Assembly (NCBI GenBank): GCA_003614675.1
Contig: ML002320.1
Coordinates: 1 to 42,148 of the forward strand
Length of the DNA stretch: 42,148 nucleotides
Reading direction: 5' to 3'
Source of the DNA: Dimargaris cristalligena
Lineage: Eukaryota
Part shown: positions 5,388 to 41,061 of the stretch, one piece after another
How positions within the stretch are numbered: the first letter of the stretch is position 1
Layout of the letters: each line of letters begins with the position of its first letter
Notes under the pieces: generated by a model
Seen by the model: only the letters and a program-made list of their open reading frames with translations
Database searches by the model: none
What the model was told of the DNA's origin: nothing
Position numbers and translations under genes: made by a program

Positions 5388-5450
5388 ATATTTATTTTTT
5401 GGTTTTGGATTAAACGGGTCGTTGAGTCCTTTTTTAAATTCAATTAGAGG

Positions 5451-5580
5451 ATATGGGTGAAATTCGACCCAGCTATATAAGGTTTTAAATGATGTGTATG
5501 GGAGATTTATTTTCAACCAGTAAGATTTGCTTCATCCAATGGATTTTTCGCTATACAGCTCGGTTGAACCTCTCCCATAT
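5451..5580 (-). mobile_element. MITE-like dispersed repeat, copy 1 (reverse orientation, internally shorter)
   Basis: Imperfect ~30-bp TIRs ATATGGGTGAAATTCGACCCAGCTATATA / TATACAGCTCGGTTGAACCTCTCCCATAT. Homologous to 7132, 14803 and 40918. Confidence 0.75.
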
Positions 5581-7131: not shown

Positions 7132-7275
7132 ATCTGGGAGAAGTTCATCCAAGCTGTATAACGAAAAATCCATTAGATTCAGCCAATATTACTAGTTAAC
7201 AATACATTTCCCATATATTTTCCCATACACGTATAATGTAAACCCTTATATAGCTGGGCCGAATTTCACCCAATC
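7132..7275 (+). mobile_element. MITE-like dispersed repeat, copy 2
   Basis: GGGAGAAGTTCATCCAAGCTGTATAACGAAAAATCCATT...CCTTATATAGCTGGGCCGAATTTCACCC. Colinear with 40918-41061. Confidence 0.75.
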
Positions 7276-8791: not shown

Positions 8792-11450
8792 GCTGGTCTA
8801 AATCTACCGGATATTTAAAAATGAGGCGGGTATATATACCTCTGTAATAGGATACGGTGGAGAGAATCTCAAGTGGCATTAATTTACTTCAGGATAACTC
8901 AAGCAAAGCAAATAAATACAAACTGCACATTCATAAGAATAGGTTTACGGCATTAGGTTAAAATGGGCAAGACTAGTAGTTGGTGGAGAGTGTAACTTAG
9001 AGGCAGGGGCGATTCCACTTAACTTATATACCTCCCAGGTGGAGGAATATAAGTGTTACTAGTGCGATTGTCGGACCCCAAAACTGAAATAGGTAACCCT
9101 CTCCTCACATGCCGCCTACCAAACGCCGAGGGGCCTGATTGGGTTTTAGCAGCCGCTACCCTTATCTCGGGTGGAAGCATTGGAGTTTAGGAAGCGAGGA
9201 ATAGCCGAACGAGGTCATTTTTCATTCGTTTGGTTTTCTACATCAGGGAATGCTGATTTGGCTTCTGTGTTGTTTCATCCATATGGTCATCCCCCCCTTT
9301 TTATCGTTCCCTAATCTCTAATTTTAGCAGAGAGAATAAGAGAGAGAGAGATATCTTTGCAATTCGTAACACATACGAAGTCGCCAAAATAGGACACTCA
9401 GGCTCGTTACACATGAAAGAGGCGCGATTCCCAAAGAGTCGCTGGCCAATCTTTGTTTAATCGGGGGCGACTTCCGCTGATTTAATAATCCCAATGATCG
9501 GGTGGACTGAAGCTGTGGCCCATCGGTGGTGGACAAAGACCCTTGGGGATGGGTATAGGTGTCCGGACGTGAAAGATTTGGCAGTGTCTCATACCCTGCG
9601 TAACGTTGGGCTCTGACACAATCCGCTTCCCGGCCTACCCCGTCGACGGACGAATAGAATGCCGAAGATTACTTAAAAATAGAAGCAAGCCTTCTGCGTC
9701 AGTGGCTCAAAATAGCCATTCGTTTTAGGGCGTACGCGGAATTGCTGCCGCTGATGCCATTTCAGTCGGGTGACTGGGTTAGCCAGCAACTTGGTCAGCT
9801 ACAACATCTCGGCCGGTTCAATTGCCCCAGCGTACGTCATTTCCGGGGATTTGGGGTCTATGAGTAAGGAAGCCAGTCTATTGAGTATCCTTAATATACC
9901 ACCGGTGGATGAAGCGCTCGATGGACTACCCCCCACTCACCCATCTTAGCTTGTCGTAGCATGTGGGTAGCGCAGACCGGAGTGTATTTACTGCACTGCT
10001 CGGGGTGCGTTAATAACCCCTTGGGGTGTATCATACCCATGGTGAGCTGAATGCGACCCTGAAGTCGTTGTCTGATCCCTGCTTTACCATAATTAAGGCC
10101 GACACCAAATAGGATTTTTCAGCCCAAGGGTCAACTGATCAGGGTGCGACGTGGTGCACACCCGCAGTGGAGATGTCTGATGGAGCCCCTTTGGCTAAAA
10201 AGAACCATTCCCCTCCTCCCCGTTTCCCATCAAATCGGGCCAGACTGGACGACGGGAGTCGTCAGCTTGTTGGCGCGATGGAGCTACCTACTTTTTAGGG
10301 CAAACTGGGCCTAGGAAAGGATCCAGCGAAAATAATCTATATCACTGGTGGCCAAAACCGGACGGAACATCTGCCCTCTTGTCCTTTATGACACTCGATT
10401 AGGCTGGCGGTGGGCCGTGTGCAACATGTAAATACATAAACAAGTGTGCCCAGCCCAATATCGCAATAAATACCCTGGCCTGCTGTCGTTTGGCGAAGAT
10501 GAGATGGATTGGGGAGGCTGGTTAAATAGGGGACTGGCTGCTACATGCCGTGCTGAGGAGGGGGGCTTCAGCAGCAATAGAGGTAGGGGATATAATAAGG
10601 GCAATATGCCCATGTTGGTCAGCCGCTCCCAGGACCATGCAGTGGGCTGGGCCCAGCTTGGGTCACTTGATAGGGGAGATAACCCCAGTCCAGTCTATTC
10701 CGGCCTTAGCTGAGCTACGGTTATAGAGGAGAGGTATCGTACTTACACGATCGATGTAGTGGAAGAACCCCGCCAGAGTGTGCGGGGCTTGATTTTATTC
10801 ATTGGCCTTAGCCGTACATACCATAGGGTAGAGTGAACAGCACCAATGGGATACGCAAGGTTTGTTGACAACCCCGTTCCCCTCCTCCCGGTCCTGGCTT
10901 CGGAATTCCGACCAGGCTTGTGGTTGTCCTCATCCCCCGAACGTCGCATTGCCCGACTGACTGGCGTTTACCTTTTACCCAGCGCTTGGCTTGGTTAAGC
11001 TTAATTTTCGGCTCTGCTTAGGTTAATAGGCAGGCTTTCCCCTTCCTTACACACGCTTCGTTTTTCCCTTCTCCTTACATCATCTCAGCCCTTGCCTTGA
11101 ATCCCCCCCTCGCTTCTTTCCTTCGTCTCACCGTATCTATCCTCTCTATTGCCATTCCGCTCGTTCCCTGAATTTGGATCTACGTGTTTCTAGGGGTCGA
11201 TCGTCCGCATCCTATTTTGCCTCCGCCGAGCCCTGCCTCCCGCCGGTCCACTAATCTGCCATACCCCGTCTATTCCGTAATCGACTCTGAATACCCGTGT
11301 AGTCGGCATTCTCTAGCCTATCTTTGAATTAAGCCAAGGTCGTCGTCGTCAGCTACTTGTAGCCATACCCGCGGTTGAATTCATCCCCTCTCCAAACCCC
11401 CGTTTAAACTATTTGAGCATTGCTTCAAGTCACGCCCCATCCGCATCGCC

Positions 11451-13894: not shown

Positions 13895-14802
13895 CAGATT
13901 GGTAGACACCGATATTCGTAGGTGGTCAAAGTGGGACTACTATTTCCGACATTGCTAGTTAGAGTAGTAGCTACCCATGGGTTGGATGGTCTTGTGGTTT
14001 GTTACTCATTATCTGCTTCCTTATATATCGTCCTACCCGATTTTCAACACCAGTTCCCTCCCTCCTCCTCGCCCTCCTCTGCGCGTCTCCTACTATATCT
14101 ATAACCCATCTAATACTACCCCGTCTCTCCACCCCTTCCTACCTACCTACCAATTTACTTACTTTCAACACTAATTCTCGTCTTCCCCTCTAATGTACTA
14201 TGCTCTTCGTCCGTCCCCATTGCTTTCACCATCGTTTTCGCCATTTGTTTCCAATAATCGGTCAGGATTAGACTTGATTCATATTTTATCCCTAATTTCT
14301 CTTTTTTTTTCCCTCAATTTTTTTAATATCTTACTATATTCCAAATTCACTATTTTATTCAAAATTGCCCCTTCTCCACCGCCTCATCCGACCCTCCCCC
14401 CTTTTAATCCATCTACTCCCTCCGGACCATTTTCAATAAAAAACGGGGCCTGTTCCTAATATCCCACATCCGAGTGTTATTCTGACCGGATGCGGTCTAA
14501 TGGGCCACTCATACAATAAACCTTTACCTTTAACTACTGCGCTTAGCTGCTATCACTATACGGATCACCGAATACTATAAATCGCCCCACTTCTAGTACG
14601 CCAAATGCGAGTTGTTGGATATTGGGCCATCGTGTCAGATGGTTATTGCGAGGAGGATATTGTTCCCGATCCATAAGCAGAAGTGGACCGGGAAATTTGA
14701 AGAAATAACCGTGCAGTGATATATTGCCCTTTTTATAAAATACCCTACTAAGGAATGCCTTGATTCCAATGTAAACCCGCCTAAGTTAATACATCGGGAT
14801 CC

Positions 14803-14932
14803 AAATGGGAGAAGTTCATCCAGGCTGCATAACGAAAAACCCATTGGATGAAGCACACATATCAAGGGGCAAAAGTTATTCTTCTATATATCATCTAAAA
14901 CCTTATACGGCTGGGCTGAAGTTCACCCAAAT
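14803..14932 (+). mobile_element. MITE-like dispersed repeat, copy 3 (divergent interior)
   Basis: AAATGGGAGAAGTTCATCCAGGCTGCATAACGAAAAACCCATTGGATGAAGC...AAAACCTTATACGGCTGGGCTGAAGTTCACCCAAAT. Confidence 0.72.
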
Positions 14933-16531
14933 GTTACCCACTAAACTGGTTGCCATTACAGGCTTTCCTTCGGAAACATCTCACTTGCTTCCATGGTTCC
15001 AATGGAACCATTAACCGCCCATGTGCCACCGTCGCTGGACTTATATATCGACCAGATGTCCCCCATAACCCAGTATCGGTATATTAGTATCGCTGTGGTA
15101 ATAGGGGGCGGGATTTACTATCGCTTATATTTCTCCACTCTTTAGCGATGTGTGATAATGCTTGTCACTACCCACACGAATGCCATCCCTGGATTAAATA
15201 AGTAGGAATTTATGTCATAACTTTAGTACTAAATTTGCATCTATTTAAACCCCGTGTTGATGGACGTGCGGCTTTTTACGGAACCTTGCTCCGACTTTTT
15301 GGGTATTCTTTACTCCACGCTCCGCAGACCATATCCTCCCAAATGCTCCGGTAAAACAATAATAATAGGACCTATTGTGTAAATGATCCATCAGCTGGGT
15401 TGCACTTGTCCCCCCATGTATCAAGGGGCTATAGCAAGGGGAGGGAGGAGGGTAGGCTTAGGTTAGTCATGGAAAAGAGAAGGGTCAACCTTGTCCAGTT
15501 TCGGAGCTTCTATTGGGGGGGAATCATGGTGCCAGTATTTTTACATTTCACCATTGGCGTGGAGGTCCAGCGCAATGCTGGACTTGTCGCAACTATAGTG
15601 GGGTCTATGGAGCGTAGAGTCTAGAACAGGCGATCCAAAATTATAGCGCTCGCTAGTGTGCAGGTATAGGTCAGATTGGAAATGCCAGTTATTGGGAGGG
15701 GGGGCTTGGGCCCATCGATTTGACTAACCGCCTATGTATAAGGTGGGGTAATGGCTGTTTAGCGCATAGGCGAGGGGGAAAGGCTGCAGGCAATTGTACA
15801 ACTGCAAAGAACCAATTCTCCACTGCCGCCCACTTCTTCAAAAATACAGGTGCGCAGGAATGGCACGGTTGGCCAGCCCTATTGGCGATGAAAGTAGCGG
15901 TTAGTTACACGACGGTAAACGCAAGCGTTTGACAGAGTCAGCCTTTGGGAAAACAGAGCTCGTTCATTAGGTTTCCATTCAACCAGCTGTTGTTGGTCCG
16001 AAAGCACCCTAGGGTCTATTGAGTGGAGGGACCATCGGCCTATACCCCTCCCCTTCCCTCCCCACCCATACAGCATCTTATTATTGGTGTTATTCGTTGG
16101 ACCAATCCACCTATTGTCTGACCATTTTCCCGCCCCGTTCACTTCGCACCCCTCCATCCCTCCCCGCCTTCCTTCCCCGCTTTTCTAATTCCCCAACGGG
16201 CCGGCATGGAAGCACCTGTCGTCTATTGGGAGGTACGTAGTCAGCGGGGGATATAGCTGGCATTGTGGTTCAAGTAATCGCAGCTATATATACAGCATCA
16301 TTTGCCCACTTTGACTAATATCTTGTTTACGATCCTCTTGTTTAAAATATATTGCACGCTGACTAGGTTTATAGCCGAATTAGTTGATCGATACCTTCCT
16401 GCTGTTACGATACTTTACGATCATTCTTTATATCTATATATTCCGATAGTCTAGGAATAACGATTCATTTTTGTCAATTTACGTCCTCTTGCCTTCTCAG
16501 AATTTCGGTGGATTCTCCTCCCTAAACTACC

Positions 16532-18097
16532 ATGAAGGTCACTTTTGGACTGTTATTTTGTACGGGTCTGGCCTCCGTCGCCCTCAGTCGCCCTACGAAC
16601 CAAAAAGATGCTCGTTTCACGCCTAGATACGCCGATGAAGGTAGTAGCCATCCCGCTCCCCTCACGGACGAAAATATCGAGGCCAGCATTGTGGCCCTTG
16701 ATACCCCGCATCCTATCGATGCTGAAGCTAAGCGTAAGGCCGAGGATATGAAGGCCCAAACCTTCGCCGCCCAGAAGCAGCAGCAGTCCACCGGCCCGAC
16801 AGTGATTCACCATGGCCAAATTGTGAATGATGAGCGCAGTCTCCCGCGTACTCTGGAGGCCTCGACCCACCTGGAGGCCGAACCTACCTTGATGGCGGAG
16901 CTACTCAAGTACAACTACGTGCTGCGCCTTAACCAAGACGGTGAGGGCCAGTACTTGCCTAACTTCCCCGAACTCCTGGAAAAGGGTCTTATCAAATACC
17001 CCCAACCGGCATCGACCGCCGGTGCTCTGTCCGAGAGTGAAACCACCCCGGCTGACCTCCCGTACGTGATTTATAATGTCAAGGAGTTCCCCCTCAATCC
17101 CACCCAGTGGGCCCTGGGGGTCTATCTGGACCGCGCCAAGGAGGCCCAGGACCTGCTGCCCTACATAGAAGTCGAGCCCACGGGAATTATATTCAACTTT
17201 TCCAAACTCCACGAAATGGTCAAGACCGACATTTACCGCGAACGCATCGCCGCACAGCGCGAGAACATGGCCTTTACCCAGGAGCCCCATGCGCAAGCCA
17301 ATCAGGCCGCCGGCTACAGTTCGGGTTCCACGTCCGGCCAACAGAGCACCCCCGGTCAGCTAACTACCCCCCAGGTCGAGTCGAGCCCGGGTTCCGATGC
17401 CGCGTCTGAATCCAGCGAGGGCCACCGTAAGATGCCCAGTTCCCTCCATGAAAGTGACGACGACGTCGTTGAAGAGCCCACCCAGAAAGTGGAACCCGAA
17501 GTGGCTAATCCCCAGCCGAAAAAGAAAAGCAATTTCCTCTATGACCTTTTCACCAAACGCATTCTCGGCCGCCACCCGGCGACGCCTAAACCCGAGGTGG
17601 AGGTCCAGTCCAGTGATGCTGACGTCGAGGAGACTGACGAAGAGGAAGACGAAGTTACTCTGGTGAACAAACCTATGCCTGGCGGCTTCGTCCACGAGCC
17701 GGTCGTGTCCGCTAATGATCACACTAACCCTGCCTCGACTGATAGGGATATCCATACCGAGCAACCTAACCACAGCAACGTAGGTCCCCAGGCCGAGTCC
17801 TCCTCCACCAGCTCCAAGCAGGCGTCAACCAGTTACCCTTACTATCCCCCCTATTACCCTCCCGTTACCAAGCAGCATGACCACAGCGAACGAGTTCCCC
17901 AGGCCGAGTCCTCTTCCTCCCGCTCCCAACAAACGTCCCGTGGCTATCCTTATTACGCGCCCTACTACCCCCACCCTCACCCTACCGGTAACCCTACCCG
18001 AGCCTTCGGATCCGGTATCCTACCGCCTCCCAACACCACCCCTTTCTCCCAGAATGGGGATTTCAAGCGCTTTAGCGAACTTCTAAACCGGCTCTAA
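16532..18097 (+). CDS. Orphan secreted protein (521 aa), disordered C-half with internal duplication; candidate effector
   Basis: Signal peptide MKVTFGLLFCTGLASVALS. accATG context and strong C-ending codon bias. Duplicated PQAESSS...YPYY.PYYP unit. Confidence 0.85.
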   Translation: MKVTFGLLFCTGLASVALSRPTNQKDARFTPRYADEGSSHPAPLTDENIEASIVALDTPHPIDAEAKRKAEDMKAQTFAAQKQQQSTGPTVIHHGQIVNDERSLPRTLEASTHLEAEPTLMAELLKYNYVLRLNQDGEGQYLPNFPELLEKGLIKYPQPASTAGALSESETTPADLPYVIYNVKEFPLNPTQWALGVYLDRAKEAQDLLPYIEVEPTGIIFNFSKLHEMVKTDIYRERIAAQRENMAFTQEPHAQANQAAGYSSGSTSGQQSTPGQLTTPQVESSPGSDAASESSEGHRKMPSSLHESDDDVVEEPTQKVEPEVANPQPKKKSNFLYDLFTKRILGRHPATPKPEVEVQSSDADVEETDEEEDEVTLVNKPMPGGFVHEPVVSANDHTNPASTDRDIHTEQPNHSNVGPQAESSSTSSKQASTSYPYYPPYYPPVTKQHDHSERVPQAESSSSRSQQTSRGYPYYAPYYPHPHPTGNPTRAFGSGILPPPNTTPFSQNGDFKRFSELLNRL

Positions 18098-19376
18098 GCA
18101 ACAATAGCTTCTCGTCTTCAAGTGCAGTCTATCTTTAATCCTGCTTAATGGCCTGACTTATAATTATATATCCTGTCGTTTCATAATAACGTTTTCCGAT
18201 CGCTTTGCCCCGTTTCTTAAGGATTGAGAGACTTTACCAACCCGTCATGATTTTTTTTTTTGGCTTCAGTTTTTTCTAATAATAATGTCTCTTTTTCAAA
18301 TGTGGCTCTATCATGGATAACCTTGGGCATGCTTTTGCGTGGTGTATAGCGGCAGCACCAAAATTTATTCGAATCCAAGGTTGGGGGACGCATTGTAGCT
18401 ATAGTTATTATTACTCATTTATTTTACCGCGACTTACCAATATACGGATTCGCTGTAATTGACTGATAGGTTTCCACACAATGGGCCTCATAGTTCACTT
18501 CGTTTGTTTAACGTAGGACTATGCATCTTTCGCTATACTATTTGTATCAAGTCCTACCAATGCCCACTAAAGCGACAGGGTGAGTATGGGCCATGGACAA
18601 AGGAGAAACGGGGGAAATTGTCGGAGGTGCACAGCTATGTACTCTAGGTACAACCTGACTGGCCAATGATATGAAACTATTAGCTAAAAAGTCGACCATA
18701 GTATCTGTAGTAGGCTGGCTGAAACCATCAATAAGATCCTTTTAATATATAAGGTCTAAACTCGCCAATTTTGGGACGAACAATGGGTGTCTATAGATTG
18801 GGGACCTAGGTAAATTAATTACCATTTACTTAAGCCTGTTATTCCACGGAAAACTGTTCAATAGAGGGTACTCGACCAGTATTTTCCCTAAACTTCAGCG
18901 GAAGATATTGGTTTTATCTGGCTCATTCCAATGACCCGGGCACGTGCCATTTTTCATAAATCGGTTACAGTTAAAGAGCCGTAGCCAATTCGAATGATTT
19001 AACTGATTTATAATTAGTGCAGTACCGTAGGCCGGGACTGATTTGGCAACAATTGCTTACTTACCAGACCAGATATATTCGAGAGAATTCGGCAGAGTTT
19101 AGCGAGTAATTTGAGCGACTTCTCAATTGGCCTAGTCTTAGGGTTACAACTTCTCCACAGGTGGTCTGCCCGAGTTTACATATTAAACCCGAGAGTTAAT
19201 CATTTTATAACCCAGTTCTTCTCTACATACCTTGGGTAGATTCACCACCATATTATACTGTTGCGTGCCATTCATCTTTTTAAAATGAGCGAGATTAAAT
19301 GCTGATAAAACATGCCGTCATTCTTACCCATTATAGGGTGACAGCTGGCAAGAATAGTGTTTATAAAAGCATCACT

Positions 19377-19413
19377 CAAAACCCTATACAGCTACACTGA
19401 ATTTCACCCATAT
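19377..19413 (+). mobile_element. Partial (right-end) copy of the MITE-like family
   Basis: AAAACCCTATACAGCTACACTGAATTTCACCCATAT matches the 3' TIR of the other copies. Confidence 0.55.
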
Positions 19414-20857
19414 CACACCAAATTCTGGAAATTTAATGAAGGTCAACCCTTACAACAGCTTGCTGTTACTGTGGTTGCCTCGATATTTTGATCCGAATTA
19501 GTGATTGGTTGTAATTTTTACCTCTTAACCTTAGACTTGATCCGTACAAATTCCTACAAATAGCACCAATTGACAACTTTCTTTGATATTTCATGGCTAT
19601 GCCTATAGTCGTAAGTTTTGGCTAAGTCGCCATCCATTCGGTTGTCATTTGATAGGCCGACCAAACTTCGATGACTTCTAAAACTTATTTTCTCTTACTA
19701 ATAATCCAATAATTTGAACATGCAACTATCATTTGGTGTTGACCTATCTGTTGATGTTATAACATAAAGGACAAATGCAAAGTCTTACAGGAGCAACCTA
19801 AAAAAAATTGAAGAGAAAAAGAACCGCCAGTGACATTGCTAGATACTCGCAGTTGGTCATATTGGGTTAGGTAAAAGAGACGCTCAATATGAATGATGGT
19901 ACGAGTATGGGATGGCATAGCCAAGGTTATTGAATCAACGGGACGGGAGAAATGAATTTATACCACTAATAAATTATCCCCTCCAATCGCCAGGCATTCC
20001 TTTATTGCTTCCTGGCTTTTATACGATCTCTTAATACACACTGGGTTACCTCCATTTTCGTTCGGCCAATATTGGCTGTGGACCACACGGAAGTACTGAT
20101 TAACTAATTTAATGCCGCACATTATCATACACCACAATCATTATCAACCGGATTTTCCAATTGAATAGTTGAACTGAGTGCCATTCACTGTTTTTGGTCG
20201 TTGATCGAAAAAGATAACATAATATCCGTTTTTTCTATCTATTTAGAAAACTACGAGTGTAAAATAATATTACCTATTGTTTCTCCAGCTGCTTAATAGC
20301 GCAGTGTTCTATATGCGATGCACGTGTCACTTAAGTGGGATGACACCCAACATCGATACTAGCCTTTGTTAGACCGCTATTGAATTGGTCTATTAGAAAA
20401 GAAATGGAAATGGGTAATAGAGTTCGCCTGTGTTCAATGGGCGGTGAATGTACACTGACATCAGCCTTGTTGAACAATTCATCTTTGGAATATAGACCAG
20501 ATTATAAAGTCATGGGTGCACTTTAGGGTACACAATATAACACTGTGGCACTTGGAAGTGGGTTTTATGCCAATAATACAAACTTTATCTGAATCCATAT
20601 ACATCCTGTATATATAGACGTCGACCCTCCTTTCTTCTGCTACGTGTCCCCCTTCTATGAACCTTCTATTGAGAACTGCCGTGTTTACATGATCCACTTT
20701 AGCATCTGTCTTAAATACAAAACATACCGCAGTGGTCATTTTTCTAGCAGCATTGCTAACTCAAGTAGCCCGTCAGTCTGTTTTTTCTTGTTTCCGTCTT
20801 AGCTGACACACCTTTACCTTTCGTTTTAGTCGAATAATCCCAAATAACTGTCCTAAA

Positions 20858-22028
20858 ATGCACGCGTGCAAAATGACCGGCCTACTGTCTTTGCTCTTTC
20901 TAGTATGTACCTCTGGAGCAAACGATTCTGAACTTGATTTCAATAACACTGTTCTCTATAACTACGGTCTCCAGTTTAGCATTGCCGACGTGGCGACAAA
21001 CCCATTCCCGGGACCCCGTGCCAAAGCCCCACCGTTATCGAATATCCTCGATTGTATTAGTCAATTGGACAGCGATGGACTAGGGTATTTCATTAACCGG
21101 CTCGAACAGATCATGGGCGGCCGTGATATTCTGGAGCACCGGGATCCAGAACAGATGTATAGTACAGACAATCTCAGCAATCAACGAGTTTTAACTAAAT
21201 ACATTTCCCAAGCAGAGGCCGGTTGATCTGCCACGATAAGCGCTGGCAGTGGGAGGAACAGCGCCGCTCTCGGCCCAAGGCTGTTTGACAATCCGCCTGG
21301 TATAGAATGGGATCCCGTCGTTGAAAGTATATTGCCATCAGGAGGCATTCCACTCTGTCAGCAGGCAAGACAATTCATGAAATTGGATTCCAGAAGTTGT
21401 CACCACGAACTACTCGAGCCCATGGATCCTATATGTAATGGCAAACATACGGTAGTGCACAACCGCGAGAAGCCTTACGCCTATGGGCACTGTGAAAGCT
21501 CATACACGAACCAGAATGACCTTGGAACTCATTTGCGATTACATTCACAAGTGGGGTCTGGCATTTGCGAACTTTGTGACAAATCGTTTCCAACGTCCAG
21601 TCGTCTCGATAGGCATATGCGATCACATACCAGGACGAATAATTCAACCTGCGATAAGTGCGGGAAGGCGATTTCATCAGCCGGGAATCTCAAAAAACAT
21701 TTACGAATCCACACCAGAGAAAGGCCCTATATCTGTAAGTATTGTGGGAGGGCATTCTCATTATCCAACAATCTCAAGAAACATATGCGAACCCACACCG
21801 GAGAAAGGCCTTATGCCTGCGAGAATTACGGGAAGCCATTTTCATCATCCAGCAATCGCGCATCACATATGCGAGCACTCCATAAAGATACTACTCTTTT
21901 GTGATTGCTGTAGCCATTCATATGCAAAATCTAACGGCCTCAATCATCATTTAAACCCATACACCTGCGGGGAGTCTCTAAATCCTTGCCCTGGATGGGA
22001 GTTTCTGTACACAATACCTTTATGTTAA
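20858..22028 (+). pseudogene. Signal-peptide + tandem C2H2 zinc-finger gene, disrupted (in-frame TGA 21224-21226; frameshift about 21896-21900)
   Basis: ORFs 20858-21226 and 21332-21904 are in the same frame and separated by a single TGA. N-terminus MHACKMTGLLSLLFLVCTSGA. Five fingers (some degenerate) with HTGERPY-type linkers. A sixth finger (CDCCSHSYAKSNGLNHH) continues in another frame. Confidence 0.72.
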
Positions 22029-22652
22029 CTAGAATCTAAGATAACTACTTGGAATGTGTAATGGGATTTGATCTATTGAAATGCCTGTTTTACGATCCTC
22101 GAGCGGGGAGTCCTTTTCAAAACAGATATAGCGGTGTCCTGTTCACGAGTTTCCTTAACTTTGCATATTTGAAATCTCCCTAAAATAGTGGTTTTTATAA
22201 ATATTCTGCTCGAAAAAGCGCCACTATATGCCCCCGTTAATTAAATATTTCGACCGGTACATTGCTACAATATCCCACCCCTTTTGTGTATTCTAATCCG
22301 GTCAATGGCCCTAACATTATCAGCAAGGTGACTCCCCCATGGACGCCGGTAGGTTCTGAAAAGGGGCCCACTTATCCCAACAATATCCCTAAAACTTAGC
22401 GCTGTAAAGTCGAACCCCAGCGATAATAAATAGCCTTAGGAAGTCGACCCGTACGCACACCGATATAGTGTTATAGTGGTTAACTGTCACGAAAAATCAA
22501 CTATAGAATGCAAATACACATGTATAAATAACTAAAATAATTTATATGTATAGGATTTTAAGAAGCGACCCCCACAATGTTAATACAGCATAGATGCTGG
22601 TGCATTGAGTGTTTTGCAGGGGGTTTAAACTGATACCAGAGTAAGGTTAAGG

Positions 22653-23813
22653 TTAGCGATTGGAAGGTTCCCCAATATTGTACAATTCCTGGGAAGATAT
22701 CGGTTTAAGGTTGTACCCTGACAAGAAAGTGCCCTGCTTGCGATTTCGAGATTCAGCAGCATCGAGCTTTTCAAGTTTCTGGGTATTTTCGCGAATACGA
22801 TCTCGGATTTCACTAATTTCAGCATCAATCTTCTTTTGATCTATAGATGTTTATAATTGTAGAATGTAAAGGCGACATGATACGATTCTGAATTAACCAA
22901 AGTAGTATGGTGGTGAGTGGAGATTCATCAGTAAGATTATTCAATGAATTTGCGATCATACGGGTGGTTGGGAAGAGAATACCCTCACGCATACCATCGT
23001 TAAACAAACTTAACTCAATACGGGTGACTCTATCCGGCAATTAAAGAGAGGTTGAGAAAACTATACGGCATTTCTACCGGGGTATTTAAACTTACCTTCC
23101 TGAATCAGTTCTTGAGCGGTTGGGTGGGGTAATTTGATGAATATGTCACCAAGGCTCATCCACGACTTGGTCTCTATAGAAAAGTATATAATTGGAGGGG
23201 GCAGCTCATTAGATTTCGAATTGGGTCTACATTGGAGATCTTTAATGGGGGTGAAGGCTGCGAAGTATTCTCGGGTCTCCTGGAGCCCATTATTAGATAT
23301 TTATATAGCGACATACCTTTGGCACCGCCCTTTTGGATGGACCGAAGGGCCTCCCGGTTGGAGTTACGCCGCCGGTCGTAATCAATGGACTGGTAGAATC
23401 GAATTAATTAGGGAGTAATATAAAATTAAATGAATTAAAAATCAGGAGACGATTCAGTTTAACCGTATAGGTCGGGGTATAGTAGAGTCCGCGAAGAAAT
23501 CGAGGGAATGCGGAGTTCAGACGTAAGTGGACGTATTGTGCAGGTGACTGATTTACTTACCAGCTGCCGGTCAATGAGGATCGATTCCCCAATAAGTTCC
23601 TTTTCAGTTTGCTCTGTTGAGGTTAATGGGAGTTACAGGTATGTTTTTTGGTACACATTGTAAGTTGTGTCCTCGTTTCCATTGGGTTGAGTGGCTTTTG
23701 TATACAATGGCTGAATCCGGAACCACGGTCGTTTGACTGGCTACATTCAACGAGGATGTATCCAACTCACGGCCATCAATGAACGCCTAGAACCTACCGT
23801 CAATAAAGTCCAT
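22653..23813 (-). CDS. PDRG1: PDRG1 (p53 and DNA damage-regulated 1), prefoldin-like subunit, 135 aa; exons 23813-23798, 23613-23561, 23389-23317, 23173-23096, 22840-22653
   Basis: Manual splicing through canonical GT-AG sites with matching phases gives MDFIDEQTEKELIGESILIDRQLSIDYDRRRNSNREALRSIQKGGAKETKSWMSLGDIFIKLPHPTAQELIQEDQKKIDAEISEIRDRIRENTQKLEKLDAAESRNRKQGTFLSGYNLKPISSQELYNIGEPSNR*. This matches PDRG1 motifs (RNxNREALR, GxxFIKxPHP, GFNLxPL). Confidence 0.9.
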
Positions 23814-25692
23814 GCTGAGTGGGGGATTGGAGGGTTGGCGAATTCCAAAATGGGCCGTTAGTCGAAGATTGGTCAAGTGAGAAAGCGTGGCGAAAGTTAA
23901 AATTTTGAAGGGAAAAAAATAAATGGGTGAGTGCTTCCAAATGGCCTGTAAGGAATTTACATCCTAAGGTTCTACTTTTGTGAGTGAGATGGCCCTTATT
24001 GGTGGCTTAGCGGTTATGTGCTGCATTAGTAAAAGTGTGCGCTGCATTCCCACCAGACTACTCCAATCAATTCAATTTATTCAAAAAAGGGCTGGCTTGT
24101 CAAGTTCGTTGAAGTCTTGGCTGTATCGTGGCATCGTGTACCACGGAGTCAGCCGGGATTTGGCCCTTTTCAAGATAGTAGCCAATAGTATGTCCGAAAA
24201 TAGATATGGCATAATCGTGGGGGTACAGAGGGGGCGGTAGTGAGCACCATGTAAATCGTTTAGGCGGATAATGTCCAGTGAATATAAGCCTTCATGGCGT
24301 GAATATCAACATAATATTCAAATGGAATCGGATCTGCGAGTGGAAGTCAGCGATTTTAGGTGGGCTGGGCATTGGTGAGTTGTATGCGGGATAGCGATAA
24401 TAACCATTTCGCAGGGGCTAATCTATGTATAAACAATGGTGGATAGGCTCATGCGACTTCCAAGTGGTCAAAATGCTCCCCAGGGCCAACACCGCGGACC
24501 TGTTGCGGCACTCCCGTAACAGGTGGCGCGCTACAGTGGGTAAGATGTAAAGGTCCGCCTATCTCCACCATTAATATACATTTCGAAAGGGATAGCAAAT
24601 CACCCTTCCAAAGGCGTTCCTTCTTTATTTCTGGTGACCACCCTGGGGAGTCATTTGATCTACAAATAATTGAAGGTGGCTTTAAATATATTTATCCATT
24701 TCGGCGACCCTACGGATGCCAATGAACAGGACATACTATGAACCGTGCCCTCACTATATGAGTCTTATAGTTGATTGATGGGACCTACTTGAACACATAA
24801 TTCTGGCCATATCTATCTAATACATACATATTTAGAGACCGAATAGGTTTTACATCAATGTGTAGGGGGGGATTCATTTTGGGAAGGTTGTCCCCGGTGC
24901 GCGTCGGCATGATGTGTGTGAACGAGAAATTAATTTATAATACAAACATGGTGGACAAATCCGTCAGTCTGTGACAAGGTATCGGTTCAGCTAGCCGTCT
25001 GACCGGCAGTTTCAAACTTCGGCACCATCTGCCAAATCGAGTCGCTTCCCATGATTTTCCACAGGGGGAGTGTTCGGGGTAAACTGGCTTTAGTGTAGCT
25101 CCGTGTAAATCCTCTAGGGATTAGACATACTATACACTAACAGCCGAATGTGGATGGGCGATTGGCCACTACATCAATAGTGTTGGGGTGATGTTAGACC
25201 TACAGCATAGTCATTCGCCTAAACTGGAGATAATATTTGGGATAAAGCCCCCAGATGGATTCATCTACAAGTTCATGATTTTCACATATTCATGTCGACT
25301 TGGGCTGCTCGAGAATGACAGCCCTTCTATGTTGGATTCTTTGGAAGTCGGCGGGATAGGGGTTGCGATCAGCAGGATCATGGCTATTCATTAATGTCAA
25401 CACTGGGCGTATGGCAGAATTCTATTGTCAGCCCATACCTCTGTTGATGCATGTCCTTACTATATAAACCCCGCCCACCCACCCTAGCGGCAAATTGTCT
25501 TGATAAAACCCTCCCTCATAGGCTCATTGTTACACATATTCATAATTTTTCAACCACGACGTACCGTTTTCGTAATAATAGGATATTGCGTTACTAAGAA
25601 CGCCGATATCCTCCGCCCTATTCTGATCATACGGCAGCTTTTCTTTCTAAGTTTAGTAATAGTCCTTAAGTGAGAAGGATTCGATTGCCGTG

Positions 25693-26040
25693 ATGCGACA
25701 GGAAGGTCACCGTATTAACCAGTGGGGGAGCCATCCTGACCAAGATAATGGCTCGCCGGGCTGCCCGGGCGTACAAGAAAATACCAGCTACCATCAAAGC
25801 CAGCCCCTTAAAAATTTCACGCAAGAATTTACTTGTAGCCAGTGTGCCCTGTCTTTTACGACCCCCGTGGAATATATGACCCATATCAATGAAAACCATA
25901 TGTATATTTGCCGGTACTGTCCATCATGGTTCGTTACCCCCGAGTTGCTCACTCAACACTACACCCAGTGCCTAAGCCGCCCTCCCGATGGTGTCGCCGT
26001 AGTGCCACCGCCCCCTCCCCAACCACCCACGGAGGACTAA
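25693..26040 (+). CDS. Small two-finger C2H2/C2HC zinc-finger protein (115 aa)
   Basis: FTCSQCALSFTTPVEYMTHINENH and YICRYCPSWFVTPELLTQHYTQC, with a Pro-rich tail. TATATAAA at about 25461. Confidence 0.65.
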   Translation: MRQEGHRINQWGSHPDQDNGSPGCPGVQENTSYHQSQPLKNFTQEFTCSQCALSFTTPVEYMTHINENHMYICRYCPSWFVTPELLTQHYTQCLSRPPDGVAVVPPPPPQPPTED

Positions 26041-26613: not shown

Positions 26614-28527
26614 ATGGACAATCGGGAGCCCAGCTATGCCGCCCCTTTCGGTAACGACCGAGACCAGGTCAATCGGTTACTGAAGGAAGTTAAAGCCCTG
26701 AAGCAGAAAGTCGAATCCCTCGAGGAGGAGAACCGCGTTCTCAAAAAGTCCATTTACGAACTCAGTGTTAGCTATTCGAAATCCGTATGGTATGGCAGTC
26801 CAGCTGCTCCATCGGACCATTCCCCGCCCCATCAACCACCCCCCTACGAGCTCCATTTCGATACGTCGGCCTCTAACTCACACCTGTCCCTTGCGGACGG
26901 GCCGGTCCGTCAGCCTGAATCCTTTGGAGTGGGTCAATCCTCCACCGGAGAAACGACAGCCCCCTCTCTTCTCAGCCACAAACCCACATCGAGTACGACG
27001 AACCAGCGGGCCCCTGGGTCATCTCCCCCGACCCTCGTTGTCGCCGGGGGGAACCCAGACTCCACGGATAATTATGTGCCCGGCAAGCGCCCGAGTGTAA
27101 CAGATGGGCTCGGCGACGGTCAACGACGAAACAATAATAATATCGGCTCCCGAGTGGGCTGGACTACAGGATCCTCCACCAAGTGGAATAGTTGTACATA
27201 CACTAGCAAGATTGAACTCAAGGTAAATTGGATGTTCGGCGTTCAAGCATACCCATCATCACTTCTTTCCAATGCACTGTCACTTTTCCGGGCCAGACTA
27301 GTACTATAGTCTGTGATACGCCACGTCATCTCATTTTAGCGAAATGCCTAGAGTTGGCTAATCTGACTTCACCATCGTTTCCTCGATTTTAATTATGCAT
27401 TGTCATCATGACAGGGCCATACGGGTGCAGTTTATACGGCCAAGTTTTCCAATGACGGCCTTTGGCTTGCTTCCGGGTCATTTGATAATTCGGTTCGGCT
27501 ATGGGATTTCCGGACCCACCAAGAACAGTCGGTTCTACTGCACCACATCCTGAACGTTTCCAGCCTAGCCTGGTCAGCCGATAGCCAATCCCTACTTTCC
27601 GGTTCCTACGACAAAACCTGCCACATTAGTTCGATTAGCCGCGAACAGAGTGTCTATTCGATGCCTTGTGGAGGTTTTGTATTGGATGTCGGCTTTCACC
27701 CCACGGACCCATCCCTTTTCTTTGTGGGTACTTCCCGCAACTGTTTACTCATGGGAGACACCCGGGCAAAGGATCCGGTTCTCAGCGTAAAACACCCTGG
27801 CATGGTCAACTGCCTTCACGTCGACGGAAGCAGCGGGGGTTCGGCGCCTGGGACTCAGGTGTGGACCGGTGATTCTACAGGGGTGCTTCAACTGTGGGAC
27901 CTTCGGCAAACCAAATCCCAGCGCGTGTGTGAAACCACTTTGGGGCCCTCGGCCGCCCTTTCGTCCATTTGCCGGCCCCGCCGTTCCCATGCCGCAGTGG
28001 ATGCGGACTACTTAATCACCAACGCCTACGATGATACTCTCCGGGTTTACCGCACAGCCCGACCCCCTGCCTCAAGTACCAACTCCTCGTCAAATGGCCC
28101 AACTCTCTTACAGCAGGCCAAGGGGTTCCGGAATCGCAACTGGCCCATTGGTAATGCCGCCATCGTACAGAACCGCCCGCAAATGGCAGGCGGTTTGTTC
28201 ATTGATATGGACATGTCTTACGATCATGACTCTGAACGAGTTGGTTCAACGGGTCACGCCAGTGGTGGAATTGGTGGGGCCCCGAATGGTGGCAGTGGGG
28301 TGGGTGGGGGTAGTGGTTCGGCCGACTCCCGTCTATTATTGGCCACGGGAAGCGCCGAGCCCTTCGCCTATATTTATACCCTAGACCCCGAAAGCCTTGC
28401 GCTAACCGCCCAGCGCCTCGAAGGACATACCGAACGGGTGTACGACGTAGACTTCCATCCCTGGGAGCCTTTTATGTGTACTAGCTCGTCTGATTTTACC
28501 ATTCGACTGTGGTCGACCAGGGAATAA
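26614..28527 (+). CDS. N-terminal coiled-coil + WD40-repeat protein; exons 26614-27222 and 27415-28527
   Basis: Coil 'VNRLLKEVKALKQKVESLEEENRVLKKSIYEL'. Intron GTAAAT...GCTAAT...ACAG joins IELK|GHTGAVYTAKFSNDGLWLASGSFDNSVRLWD. The last repeat is GHTERVYDVDFHP...SSDFTIRLW. Confidence 0.85.
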
Positions 28528-30103
28528 CTCAATGTCTACAATCGGAGCATTTGTTTATCCGTCTACTAATATGGCCTTGGATTTGATGCTCTTGAGTTGG
28601 GCATAATGGTGTATTTACTGCTGATGTTTACATCCCCATATACCCTGGCATGTAATTTTTCATTTTCTGGCCCCTCATGTTTCCACAATATGCCCTGGGC
28701 TTTAGGGCGATTCCTAAAAAATCATCCCCAAATTTGTAAGAAATATGCGAATCAGCCTCTATAAATTGAAAGAATTTATTTTGTTGAGAATCCTTAACAG
28801 GCTATTTGTTTTTGACCCCATTTGATGGTAACCATCATTTCTGAATTAACAACCAAGGTGCCTGTTTACTGGTAATTGATGAGTTGAATAATACCTATAA
28901 GCGGGGTTGGTAAGTGTATTGATGTTTTGGGGGTTTTCAGCCCCCCTTAGCCTTGGCCATTCCGTACTTTACAATGCAGGCTATCGAATGCCCAATACCG
29001 GATTCAAATACACATCTGGTCAAATAATTTGTCGTTGACATGCAATTAAAAGCGCCGGGTTGCCAGTACTATACGAGTTTCGGGTAGGAAGTAGTCAGGT
29101 CTTGCGCGATTTCCAGCCCACTAATTTGTTGATAGGTAACCACTGTATGAGCAACAAAGATGCTATAAAGCGGTGAATATTTATGTAGATGCAGACATTT
29201 CTACAACGACAGTCCAGAGGTGTTTGTGCTGACCAAATTTCATCCATATAGGCCCTATTTTACCATCTGGGCTGATTGAAACCCCACAATCCACAGGAAA
29301 AATACATTCTTATTAACACATCTACATAATTGGTCCGATTGTATCGTATGGGGCAGTGGTACCACTTCATTATGGCGCTGTTTGCCCCCATTCTTATTGC
29401 CCTCTTCTGTTTCTGGAGCTTCCTTAGGTGGGGCTATAATTAGGCACTTTAATTTCCATTCAAGACAATCAATCACCAGATTACTAGGCCTCCGGAACTA
29501 CCCGTCTTAAAGGCAACTGCATCAAGAGAAAAGTTGGTTTTCATCATTATTTTTATTTTTATATGGAGGGGGGGGGGGCTTCCAGGAACCTGGCCTTTGT
29601 TCCATCAGCCCTTAAGTTCCTCCATTTGTATACTATATCATGCGGGCTTACTTCAATACTGTATTCCAATTGGAACTAATCCGTATATTGGCTGAATCGG
29701 GGCGCGGATATAGCTCATTGAAAAGCCGGCTTGCATCTACCACCAGATAATCAGCCACATTGCCAACATACCTTGCAATATAAAATGCCTCCCAGATTGT
29801 TGAATCAACCGACAATACCCATGGCGGAATTCTCTTCGGTTACAATGCTCACAGCTCATTATAGTTAGGCGGTAGTACCCATATATTTAGAAACCCCTAT
29901 TGACGATGACCGATATATAAATGAGCTGCGCCCTTTTGCATATCCAAAACATTACGACATATCTCATTTTCTGCACTTGCCCGCTATTGACCCGTTTCGA
30001 CCAATTTGTTCATTGGCATACTTGCTTCGTTATTTGGCAAAGCATTGCTACCACCTCTTCAGCTTTCTTCAAATACATTTGACCGCCTTCATATTCTTCA
30101 ATC

Positions 30104-30730
30104 ATGCAATTTTTTGTAGTATTGTCCACCCTTTTCTGCCTGCTTGTAATCGGTTCAGTGGCCGGACTTCCCGTTGAAAACTCCTGGATAAATGACAGCA
30201 GCCCGGAAGGTGATTTGAAAAGCCAGTATTCGAATGCCCTGATCAATATATTGACAGGATTGCAAATATTCAACAATGCCCCTTCGAATGTCGGAGTAAT
30301 GAGCCCTGTCGATGAAGATGTGGGAAAGTCGGCGGATAGCTCGGTTACCGTCGCTGAAGCCCCCACTAGCCGGCGGTGGTTCTGGCAACCTACAATGACA
30401 TCCGGGTCTATACAACCAGCCGCCACCACTACCGCTGGCCAGGCTCCCGAAGGTTCCTGGAGCACCGTCCCCAAAGCGAACGCACCTAATTGGGGCGACT
30501 CTTATCCTCCTTCGACCCCTAGTTCCGTGAAATCGGGTACTGTCCCCACTTCCGCTGTTCCCGAGGGCAACCGGGGTATTGTCACCCCCGCAATTACCAA
30601 CGATTGTGGGGAGCTGTACCCCACAGTGGCAGCCGATTTAGTGCGTCCCATCAACATTCCCAACCCCCATTATACGATTGCCGATAGTAGCAACGCCGAC
30701 GCCAATTTGCCCTACTGTGACGAGGTCTAG
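30104..30730 (+). CDS. Orphan secreted Ser/Thr/Pro-rich protein (208 aa)
   Basis: Signal peptide MQFFVVLSTLFCLLVIGSVAG followed by LP. Two C-terminal Cys. TATATAAA at about 29914. Confidence 0.8.
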   Translation: MQFFVVLSTLFCLLVIGSVAGLPVENSWINDSSPEGDLKSQYSNALINILTGLQIFNNAPSNVGVMSPVDEDVGKSADSSVTVAEAPTSRRWFWQPTMTSGSIQPAATTTAGQAPEGSWSTVPKANAPNWGDSYPPSTPSSVKSGTVPTSAVPEGNRGIVTPAITNDCGELYPTVAADLVRPINIPNPHYTIADSSNADANLPYCDEV

Positions 30731-31557
30731 TCATAAGTCCAGTTTGTTTATGAGATTGGTGAATATCCTCGTACGTCTGGGTGCTTAAAGAACACATTTG
30801 TATAAATATGTTATGACTAAGTTCCTTTAGGATGCTGTTGCACCCTTGGTTGCTCCCTGGATGGACGATCAGGTACAATAAAACTCTTCAACCAATCCCC
30901 CGCCGGAATAGTACATGCGTTTCCATCCGATTCATAGAAAACTCCACCATAATGTAGCACATGGGGATTGTTGGTGAATAGAATAGTGTTTTGATTTTGT
31001 TGACCCTGATTGAAAGAAAAGGGTTATTCTAACCAAAGGCTTAGTAGGACGGGTGTATTGGATATGGAGAGTGGACCAATTTCAATCAACCCTGTGATGT
31101 CCCGCCTCTAAAATGCTGCAAATGGCCTGTCACATCGATTCTTTAAATAGAGCCAGATGTGACAAGGTAATAGGATATATAGCCACCTATTTCGTAAATA
31201 AAAGGGGTTTCCGGAGCTATCGGGGTTGGAAAACCCCAGAGCAACACTCGCTTTCCGCTCCCGAATCTGGTCAGCCACCGAGTCTGAGGTTGGCAGGTCC
31301 AGCCCATTAATTATAGATTCAGTGAACATCAGCTGCAGCTTGCCACACACTGCCAGCTGGCACTGATAAACAACCGCCTATCGTAGAAGAAGTTTTCGTG
31401 AATATTTTTCTTGGGCTTAGTTGATTTCGACTGTCTTCTCCTCCTCCTTCCTGACCCTAGTAAAGGCGGCGCATTCCCACATTCCGCTCTTGCACACATT
31501 AGTCCACTTTTGTTTATTTTCTTTTTACATTCCTTACTCTATTTCTATAGTCCCACC

Positions 31558-33426
31558 ATGGCCAAGCCTCTCTCCTCGTCCGCCGCGACCTATGCTACAA
31601 TCGACTATACCCAAATCTGTCGGACCCTGCTGGGCCGTCGGTGGTTGGATTCGGTCGGCATTCTCGCCGGTCTATCGGTGTGTTTGGGCCTCCTCTTCAG
31701 CTTCCAGCCCACCCGAGGTCTCTGGGGATCCCTCGCCCACCTCGTTCAATCCAGTCGCCTCTACTCCATGATTCACATTTTCATCGTTTTATTCGCCCTG
31801 AGCCTGCTGAGCAAAAAGCATTTCCAAGTGGACCGCACGGTTCATTCGAGCCGCATTGTCAAACTCCAGCTTCTGGCCCGACCTGAATCCTGGAAGATCG
31901 TGGCCAGCTATACGTTGGCCAGTTTCCTCCTGAGCGGAGTTTACCTGCGCCTGGTCTACCACGAGGCGGCCGTTCCAACTCCCCTCCTCCCCCGCGCCAA
32001 TCCCGCCAATCCCCTGTACATCAACACCAGTCGAGCCATGTGGAATTGCGCAGTGTCGCTGCTGGGCTTCGTCTACGGCTGGCACATTGTTTGGTCCGAA
32101 CGTTTGCATCTGAGGTTCACGCCCCTGCACCAGTCGCGTTTTTTCACTCTCAAGGGCCGCTTGCCAACCGTGTTCGCCAACTCTACGCGGTTCGCCTGGC
32201 GCTTCCTCTGTGCCTTTGTCCCCGTCTACTTCATAATCCATCCCACCATGACGGCCATCAACGCCTTTTTGGCTTCCCTGGATTTGTCCGGCACAACCGT
32301 TACACCGCCAGGCAACCCCATCTGGAGCCCCACTTGGTTGATTCATATCTACCTATCCGCCCTCTTCATGCTGATCAGCTGGGAGGCACAGTTGGCTATC
32401 TTCGAGGTGATATTTACTGAACCCATGGACGTGGCCCCCTTGAGCATGGATTCCAATGCCTGCTTGTGTGATGGTCTGACCCCCCTGCGCAGCAGTCTGC
32501 TGTCCGGCATGGCTGATACCCTATACGAATATTACAGCCCGAGTGACCGGCAACTGGTTCGCTACCATGCCTTTTACGAACTAGCCCGCCTCGCCCGTTT
32601 CAGCCCTAAGCAGCGGCACCAGCTGTTCCAGGACATTGATCGGTCCCAGACCATGTGGCAGGGGGTGGCCAGCCAGTGCTTCGGAGTACTCGACCAGGCG
32701 GTCAACACCCTCCAAGCCAAGTCGGCGCCAGAGAAAACGAATCCAGTCCTTCCGCCTACTGATTTGAGCATTACCCCCGTCGACCCTTTGGCCAATATCA
32801 CCATGCGCCGCAGGGGTGCGTACATCTCCGACCTATTAGACCCCGCCCTTAAACAAGGCAATGCTCCGACCTCAAGTTCCCCATCATTGGGTTCCACGCG
32901 AGCCCCGGCCGCGCCCAAGTCTATGGACGGCTATTTATTCAATCTGGCTGCGTCATTTTTGAAAAAGTCCAAAATCGGCAAGGAACTGCTTCTCCGCGTA
33001 TCCAATGATGCCAGTATCACCATATTCGCCGATTTTCAGTTACAGCTGTGGGCGATCCAAGCCATCGGTGATTTAACGTACCATTCACTCCGGGAGGATC
33101 CGTTTGGTAGCGTTCACCCGCAGATTGGTCGCATTCTGGAGCGGTTGGTGGAATACCTTATCCTTTTGGAGGACTTTAGCCGCACGCCGTATTACCGCAC
33201 CCTGTCGCTCACCAATGGTCAGGCTAATGCCACGGGTTCCTCCTCGTCGGCCCTGTTTCGCAACTCCCCGCACCAGCGCCTTCATCGCCAGGCCTACGCC
33301 CTCATCCAGGCGCTGCAGACCACTATCTATCTTATCATAACGACTTTCTACGAGCATTTAGCTCAGTACAAATTCACTCCTCGATGCGCCAAAAAACTGC
33401 AAAACTTTGTGCAGTTCCGCGAATAA
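31558..33426 (+). CDS. NDC1: Nucleoporin NDC1 (transmembrane pore membrane protein)
   Basis: accATG at 31558. About six N-terminal hydrophobic segments ending at 'VIFTEP', then 'AFYELARLA...RHQLF...W', 'LWAIQAIGDLTYHSLREDPFGSVH' and 'LQTTIYLIITTFYEHL', matching Ndc1 conserved blocks. Confidence 0.9.
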   Translation: MAKPLSSSAATYATIDYTQICRTLLGRRWLDSVGILAGLSVCLGLLFSFQPTRGLWGSLAHLVQSSRLYSMIHIFIVLFALSLLSKKHFQVDRTVHSSRIVKLQLLARPESWKIVASYTLASFLLSGVYLRLVYHEAAVPTPLLPRANPANPLYINTSRAMWNCAVSLLGFVYGWHIVWSERLHLRFTPLHQSRFFTLKGRLPTVFANSTRFAWRFLCAFVPVYFIIHPTMTAINAFLASLDLSGTTVTPPGNPIWSPTWLIHIYLSALFMLISWEAQLAIFEVIFTEPMDVAPLSMDSNACLCDGLTPLRSSLLSGMADTLYEYYSPSDRQLVRYHAFYELARLARFSPKQRHQLFQDIDRSQTMWQGVASQCFGVLDQAVNTLQAKSAPEKTNPVLPPTDLSITPVDPLANITMRRRGAYISDLLDPALKQGNAPTSSSPSLGSTRAPAAPKSMDGYLFNLAASFLKKSKIGKELLLRVSNDASITIFADFQLQLWAIQAIGDLTYHSLREDPFGSVHPQIGRILERLVEYLILLEDFSRTPYYRTLSLTNGQANATGSSSSALFRNSPHQRLHRQAYALIQALQTTIYLIITTFYEHLAQYKFTPRCAKKLQNFVQFRE

Positions 33427-40917: not shown

Positions 40918-41061
40918 ATATGGGAGAAGTTCATTTAGGCTGTATAATGAAAAATCCGTTGGATGAGGCCAATATTACTGGTTAAAAGCTATTCTCACAT
41001 ATGTTCGCCCATACACGTATTATGAAAAGCCTTATACAGCTGGTTTGAATTTCATCCATAT
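40918..41061 (+). mobile_element. MITE-like dispersed repeat, copy 4 (144 bp)
   Basis: TIRs ATATGGGAGAAGTTCATTTAGGCTGTATAA / TTATACAGCTGGTTTGAATTTCATCCATAT. Confidence 0.78.

Follow-up and report, generated by a model that had tools for sequence, protein, structure and literature searches.

A stretch of 42,148 nucleotides from Dimargaris cristalligena (contig ML002320.1 of assembly GCA_003614675.1, hereafter the window) carries at positions 20858–22028 of the forward strand what was very probably one gene and is now a pseudogene, in which a leader-like N-terminus and a tandem C2H2 zinc-finger array share a reading frame. Taking the statement as a whole, we lean towards a pseudogene relic whose intact ancestor was probably secreted, and for which a role as a host-nuclear effector is possible at less than even confidence. 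That the leader-like N-terminus and the finger array belonged to one gene, as an earlier sequence-only reading of this DNA had held, is supported by P0125, a public protein that is collinear with the window copy across its in-frame TGA.

Results

The reading frame that begins at 20807 stays open to 21904 on the forward strand save for one TGA at 21224–21226, which leaves stop-free runs of 139 and 225 codons in one common frame. The other two forward frames over 20807–22030 contain 10 and 26 stops, and the continuity of the frame from leader to fingers is therefore more than chance would give. The start ATG lies at 20858 and a second ATG at 20873 (M6). From the first Met, the frame encodes a signal-peptide-like leader (residues 1–21, 20858–20920), called by a home-made heuristic and matched by a leader-like segment at the aligned position of P0125; the first part of an acidic orphan N-domain (residues 22–122, 20921–21223; pI 4.3, one Cys, no Pfam family); the premature TGA at codon 123, where P0125 has an ordinary residue at the aligned column and reads on; and the second part of the N-domain (residues 124–191, 21227–21430), homologous to P0125 residues 128–192. 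The finger array follows, and all of these features lie on the forward strand. The sequence-only reading had listed a leader, 5(+1) fingers, TGERP-like linkers and a single TGA, all of which we recovered at the same positions.

The N-terminus (MHACKMTGLLSLLFLVCTSGA, followed by NDSELDF) consists of a basic residue, then an uncharged hydrophobic core of 8–12 residues, with small residues at −3 and −1. Leaders were called with a rule of our own making, which asks for eight consecutive uncharged residues that start in residues 2–15 and average ≥ 2.0 on the Kyte-Doolittle scale, small residues at −3/−1 soon after the core, and an uncharged run of ≤ 24 residues. This crude rule flags the window protein from either Met, with a best 8-residue mean of 3.15, and it also flags P0125, whose weaker core includes a Gln and reaches a mean of 2.34. 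When applied to the Met-starting C2H2 proteins retrieved in the finger search, the same rule flags 3 of 111, and among the window's own ATG ORFs of at least 60 aa it flags 11 of 74 (~15%), several of these being long orphans that resemble real secreted proteins. Met1, Lys5, Gly8-Leu9 and the hydrophobic core occupy the same columns in the window copy and in P0125, at about 30% identity overall. These common columns would fit a conserved leader, and they stop short of proving export itself. Zinc fingers need a reduced, metal-loaded state, which is awkward in the secretory pathway and counts against a secreted product. On balance, the leader of the intact ancestor probably directed its product into the secretory pathway.

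P0125 is recorded as 'hypothetical protein H4R33_004369, partial [Dimargaris cristalligena]' and has 192 aa. It was found with the 122-aa N-terminal ORF as the phmmer query against 1,835,955,588 representatives, an exhaustive search that returned two proteins at E ≤ 0.001, namely the window's own protein and P0125 (E 4.9e-05). Relatives were sought with single-sequence queries, by which further family members may have escaped. P0125 aligns collinearly with window residues 1–191 across the TGA, with 58 of 192 residues identical, one gap of a single residue, and an E value of 3e-26. The piece behind the TGA (21227–21457) was absent from the query by which P0125 was found, and on its own it matches P0125 residues 128–192 in BLASTP, with 26 of 65 residues identical, no gap and E 9e-13. 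Since this piece finds P0125 by itself, the window's two ORFs are read as the halves of one former coding sequence. P0125 ends 15 residues short of the point at which the fingers start in the window, so that leader and fingers together are known from the broken window copy alone.

The relationship between the two copies can be judged from their labels. P0125 shares its H4R33 locus-tag prefix with P0129 (H4R33_003450, labelled Dimargaris cristalligena), which clusters at ≥ 90% with the window's P0128. Because the prefix is that of the window's own counterpart, we read P0125 as an apparent same-genome paralogue rather than an orthologue. A tblastn search of the window with the read-through protein and P0125 returned the locus itself and a weak finger match at 25819–25959, and no second copy. 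A word-indexed search with read-through residues 1–200, in which X stood for the stop codon, gave a score to none of its 314 candidates. The sequence-only reading had allowed for intact paralogues, and this expectation is borne out in part: P0125 has an uninterrupted N-region, and no intact leader-plus-finger protein was seen in these searches. It had also named homologues devoid of the N-terminal hydrophobic segment as evidence that would speak against it, and P0125 keeps that segment.

Between leader and fingers lies an N-domain of about 170 residues that is acidic and poor in Cys. Its two parts have pI values of 4.3 and 5.0 in the window copy; P0125 has a pI of 4.05 and no Cys, and the finger part a pI of 9.7. 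Pfam assigned no family to either N-region, the 122-aa N-terminal ORF included, or to the 190-aa ORF of the neighbouring frame. AlphaFold2, run on the N-domain with a two-row alignment, gave an unusable model (mean pLDDT 35.7, pTM 0.23), and at this pLDDT we make no statement on the fold. A search of the ESM Atlas with P0125 gave no usable match, and a scan of JGI metagenomes with the two-row alignment produced 103 pattern matches, of which none was confirmed. On present sequence evidence, the gene family has so far been seen only in a Dimargaris-type haustorial mycoparasite.

The finger array is recognised clearly by Pfam, which on 21227–21901 reports zf-C2H2 with E 1e-23 (82.8 bits, cut-off 25.2) and zf-H2C2_2 with E 6.3e-23 (80.2 bits, cut-off 40), so that the curated cut-off for the profiles PF00096 and PF13465 is passed. 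There are six finger units with a strict period of 84 nt (28 residues), starting at 21476, 21560, 21644, 21728 and 21812 and then at 21894. The step from F5 to F6 is 82 nt instead of 84 nt, and F6 accordingly falls into the next frame, which runs on without a stop as far as the TAA at 22026–22028; the main frame closes after F5 with a TGA at 21902–21904. All four zinc ligands are found in F2, F3 and F4 only, not in every unit; F1, F5 and F6 each have Tyr in place of one ligand. F1 (21476–21544) is degenerate, with the Tyr codon 21482–21484 at its first Cys ligand. F2 (21560–21628), reported by Pfam, has its four ligands and a degenerate linker, TRTNNST, to F3; F3 (21644–21712), likewise reported by Pfam, has four ligands, Ile in place of the usual aromatic core residue, and the linker TRERPY. 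F4 (21728–21796) is canonical, is followed by TGERPY and forms the best Pfam stretch (residues 168–190 of the 225-aa piece). F5 (21812–21883) is degenerate, since Tyr (codon 21827–21829) takes the place of its second Cys ligand and Arg that of the core Leu, and F6 (21894–21962) has the Tyr codon 21960–21962 at its last His ligand. The linkers after F3 and F4 are of TGEKP type and the remaining ones are degenerate. An ATG at 21377 opens a 175-aa ORF that contains F1–F5.

Used as a query, the finger part matched 534 proteins at E ≤ 0.001 among 772 candidates. The best 120 of these 534 share 31–48% identity across 40–79% of the finger region and are mostly animal poly-zinc-finger proteins, and none of these 120 covers the N-region. 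Judged by sequence, the finger-part matches are generic and not orthologues.

The lesions of the window copy are the TGA at codon 123, a net loss of 2 nt before F6, and Tyr at ligand positions of F1, F5 and F6. The TGA qualifies as a premature stop by comparison with a homologue, as P0125 continues where the window copy has the stop. Degenerate fingers also occur in working proteins, and the TGA and the frameshift are therefore the sole unambiguous lesions; together with the three ligand substitutions they make a pseudogene the simplest reading. The sequence-only reading had called this copy decayed, and that is supported. Over 20700–22100, the TGA included, the contigs of 4 of 4 DNA runs (two samples, two studies) differ from the window in no letter; these runs may be the source of the assembly, and their agreement is consequently no independent support and excludes only a local assembly slip. 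The public gene models, P0124 (117 aa, from M6) and P0126 (122 aa), end at the TGA at 21224–21226. At most, the window copy would yield a leader-bearing fragment of 122 aa, which is all that public annotation calls at this place.

Repeat-induced point mutation (RIP) was considered as the origin of the Tyr substitutions. RIP is indicated by TpA/ApT above ~0.89 and (CpA+TpG)/(ApC+GpT) below ~1.03, and it needs a duplicate copy. For 20858–22028 these indices are 0.64 and 1.38, and as they are not RIP-like and the window holds no second copy, we do not attribute the Tyr substitutions to RIP.

Discussion

We propose the following hypothetical scenario for the intact ancestor. Its single frame would have encoded a cleavable-looking leader of ~21 residues, an acidic orphan region of ~170 residues (pI ~4), an array of six fingers and a short tail, the fingers being basic (pI 9.7), tandem C2H2 units with Krueppel-type linkers. 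The leader would have taken the product into the secretory pathway, and in a biotroph that draws its food through haustoria within host hyphae the product would most plausibly have ended up in the host nucleus, modulating transcription there by binding DNA; the fingers would have read the DNA and the acidic region would have been the activating part. By analogy with MoHTR1 and MoHTR2 of Magnaporthe oryzae, which act in this manner in rice, we tentatively suggest that the ancestor acted as a DNA-binding modulator in host nuclei, a suggestion that we hold with less than even confidence. More speculative still, and on the whole unlikely, is the broader idea that Dimargaris-type mycoparasites possess a private family of secreted transcription factors, each composed of a leader, an acidic activation region and a tandem C2H2 array, which would travel out of the haustorium to the host fungus's nuclei and reprogram transcription there, the window copy having been lost recently and P0125 being live. 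The intact sister gene, P0125, is a candidate for a host-nucleus-targeted protein.

The main rival reading takes the locus for the remains of an ordinary C2H2 transcription factor that resided in the fungus's own nucleus, with nothing ever secreted; we consider this possible but doubtful. An acidic N-domain followed by basic fingers is the standard layout of a nuclear activator, and the hydrophobic stretch could then be part of a folded or protein-binding segment. The true start could also lie elsewhere, as a pyrimidine-rich tract ending in ...TTTTAG at ~20822–20829 could be the acceptor for an unseen upstream exon. Yet the two paralogues share the Met column, Lys5, an uncharged core and small residues despite 30% identity, and the ~12-residue core is too short to span a membrane; both points speak against this rival, even if the core of P0125 is weakly hydrophobic. 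As for the leader call itself, it stems from a crude heuristic that accepts 11 of the 74 ATG ORFs of the window, whereas only 3 of the 111 Met-starting C2H2 proteins pass it. It is improbable, in our view, that the locus now comprises two independent units, a small secreted protein gene (122 or 117 aa, from 20858 or 20873 to 21226) and a separate or dead finger remnant, for which the ATG at 21377 may serve as start of a 175-aa product with three good fingers. Such a division would agree with P0124 and P0126, which both stop at the TGA, with the 175-aa ORF, which holds F1–F5 and in which F2–F4 keep all their ligands, and with the presence of three other orphan ORFs with leader-like starts in the window. 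However, the 68 residues that follow the TGA have their homologous counterpart in the onward sequence of P0125 (E 9e-13), and the split at the TGA is therefore secondary. Moreover, exact look-up found neither the 175-aa nor a 160-aa finger ORF in a collection of 15 billion proteins, and the missing ligands, like the frameshift, suggest that the finger part has come under weaker constraint.

That the gene still works, its TGA at 21224 being read through, recoded as selenocysteine or a reassigned codon, or spliced out, seems to us very improbable indeed. The 225 open codons behind the TGA might suggest it, as might the terminators: none of eight other long ORFs of the window ends in TGA (four TAA, four TAG), and the zinc-finger locus has TGA at each of its two stops. 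The eight ORFs (ends 33426, 18097, 30730, 3143, 7448, 28527, 13651 and 35028) are a small sample, some perhaps being exon ends, and TGA is found just outside long ORFs, a placement expected of a stop. We know of no nuclear TGA reassignment in fungi; if TGA is treated as a sense codon within the window, many ORFs fuse in every frame and no coding pattern emerges, and reassignment was rejected on prior grounds. Selenocysteine recoding was likewise rejected, since an Rfam scan of 19000–24000 at E ≤ 1 found no SECIS element and only two weak, unrelated matches. As regards splicing, 218 GT-AG pairs span the TGA, 74 of them in frame, and none of these 74 has a GTRNGT donor; the five spanning pairs that do have one (GTATGT at 20903) are all out of frame. 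Removal of the TGA by splicing was rejected on this account, and an intron there is unlikely also because the alignment with P0125 is gapless through the region. The array also bears further lesions downstream.

The effector idea draws on comparison with known systems. TAL effectors of Xanthomonas are bacterial proteins delivered by type III secretion that read DNA through repeats of 33–35 residues. The sequence-only reading had likened the proposed ancestor to them, and in concept the two agree, each being a DNA reader of modular build that a parasite makes, that has an acidic part for activation and that acts in the host nucleus; as Pfam finds zinc-finger families only at this locus, the likeness is one of analogy and not of membership. 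With Krueppel-type C2H2 factors (PF00096, PF13465) the locus shares the 28-residue period, the C-x2-C-x12-H-x3-H pattern and the TGERPY linkers. It differs in that such relatives match the finger part only and that 3 of 111 pass the leader heuristic.

The closest parallel is found in Magnaporthe oryzae. According to the accessible parts of the published accounts, MoHTR1 and MoHTR2 are exported by the fungus, reach the nuclei of rice cells and attach to promoter elements; MoHTR3 combines a signal peptide and an NLS with a C2H2 domain at its C-terminus; and 20 predicted secreted proteins of this fungus have a DNA-binding domain, half of them of C2H2 type (PMC7672089, PMC10189765). As described there, MoHTR1–3 have an N-terminal signal peptide ahead of the C2H2 part, an order that the putative leader and the fingers of this locus would repeat, and they are like it in belonging to a biotrophic, host-penetrating fungus, and in being lineage-restricted. 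The MoHTR proteins, compared here by their descriptions in those texts, are small, and their DNA-binding part has been likened to the single-finger GAGA factor. This locus, in contrast, has six tandem fingers with Krueppel-type linkers and an acidic orphan region of 170 residues. The host would be a fungus here and is a plant in the case of MoHTR, and the window copy is broken and known from its sequence, whereas the accessible text describes secretion and host-nuclear entry as shown for MoHTR1 and MoHTR2. Going by these sources, secreted C2H2 nuclear effectors are already known, and the idea is less new than the sequence-only reading implied. What would be new, if it is true, is the tandem Krueppel-type array with a private acidic domain, the fungal host and the phylum, Zoopagomycota; no DNA-binding effector passed from one fungus to another, and none from the early-diverging Zoopagomycota, would have been known before it. 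Among the matches listed in a literature search for C2H2 effectors of the host nucleus, the work concerned plant pathogens and animal parasites, with no mycoparasite case, and a full-text search for Dimargaris and zinc finger led, among the matches listed, to secondary metabolism.

The proposed parasitic-fungus source accords with the neighbouring genes. The Ndc1 ORF at 31402–33423 (Pfam Ndc1_Nup) has, besides itself, two relatives at E ≤ 1e-10, from Tieghemiomyces parasiticus (40% identity) and Dispira parvispora (38%), both Dimargaritales, an order of mycoparasites, and near-identical cluster-mates of the window's proteins are labelled Dimargaris cristalligena. As set out in the accessible text of a comparative paper on Kickxellomycotina, Dimargaritales parasitise Mucoromycota and some Ascomycota by means of an appressorium and a biotrophic haustorium, and that text deals with proteases and secondary metabolites rather than with DNA-binding secreted proteins (PMC9866270). 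The means by which haustorial mycoparasites among the early-diverging fungi control their hosts are poorly understood. If P0125 is secreted and host-nuclear, transcription-factor effectors extend from plant pathogens to fungus-on-fungus parasitism, and the finger code could, if the proposal is true, indicate the host targets. For annotation, the 'hypothetical protein' of 117 or 122 aa represents what a broken zinc-finger gene has left of its N-terminus and not a stand-alone small secreted protein.

Other features of the window

The window looks rich in orphan genes of secreted type. Leader-like orphan ORFs are found at 16532–18097 (+, 521 aa, MKVTFGLLFCTGLASVALS), 30104–30730 (+, 208 aa, MQFFVVLSTLFCLLVIGSVAG) and 7448–8791 (−, 447 aa, MTKARLIGTIGLLLLLSSESLG). 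The 521-aa and 208-aa ORFs are publicly annotated (P0127 and P0128), and the 447-aa ORF is not, by exact look-up. Pfam gave no family for P0127, P0128 or the ORFs 16526–18094, 30083–30727 and 7451–8797. Within the 521-aa ORF, 17755–17970 (+) is a tandem repeat of 105–111 nt, encoding Ser-rich stretches followed by YPYY(P/A)PYYP motifs.

At 27412–30730 (+), the 747-aa model P0129, from the other public annotation, that of the counterpart contig, fuses a WD40 part (Pfam, residues ~173–377) with the P0128 sequence, whereas the annotation of the window's own assembly keeps the leader-bearing, 208-aa P0128 separate from the WD40 part; one of the two models is probably wrong. At 25693–26040 (+) lies a small ORF with two C2H2 fingers of non-Krueppel type (Pfam zf-C2H2, E 5.6e-06), which measures 115 aa when read from the first Met. 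Save for a weak finger match it bears no relation to the array at 21476–21962, and the exact ORF is absent from the public protein collection.

A dispersed repeat family, which looks MITE-like, has copies at 5450–5580, 7127–7272, 14798–14932, 19363–19414 and 40913–41058. The copies measure ~50–140 nt at 71–90% identity and lie in both orientations in AT-richer intergenic stretches, one of them 1.4 kb upstream of the zinc-finger locus.
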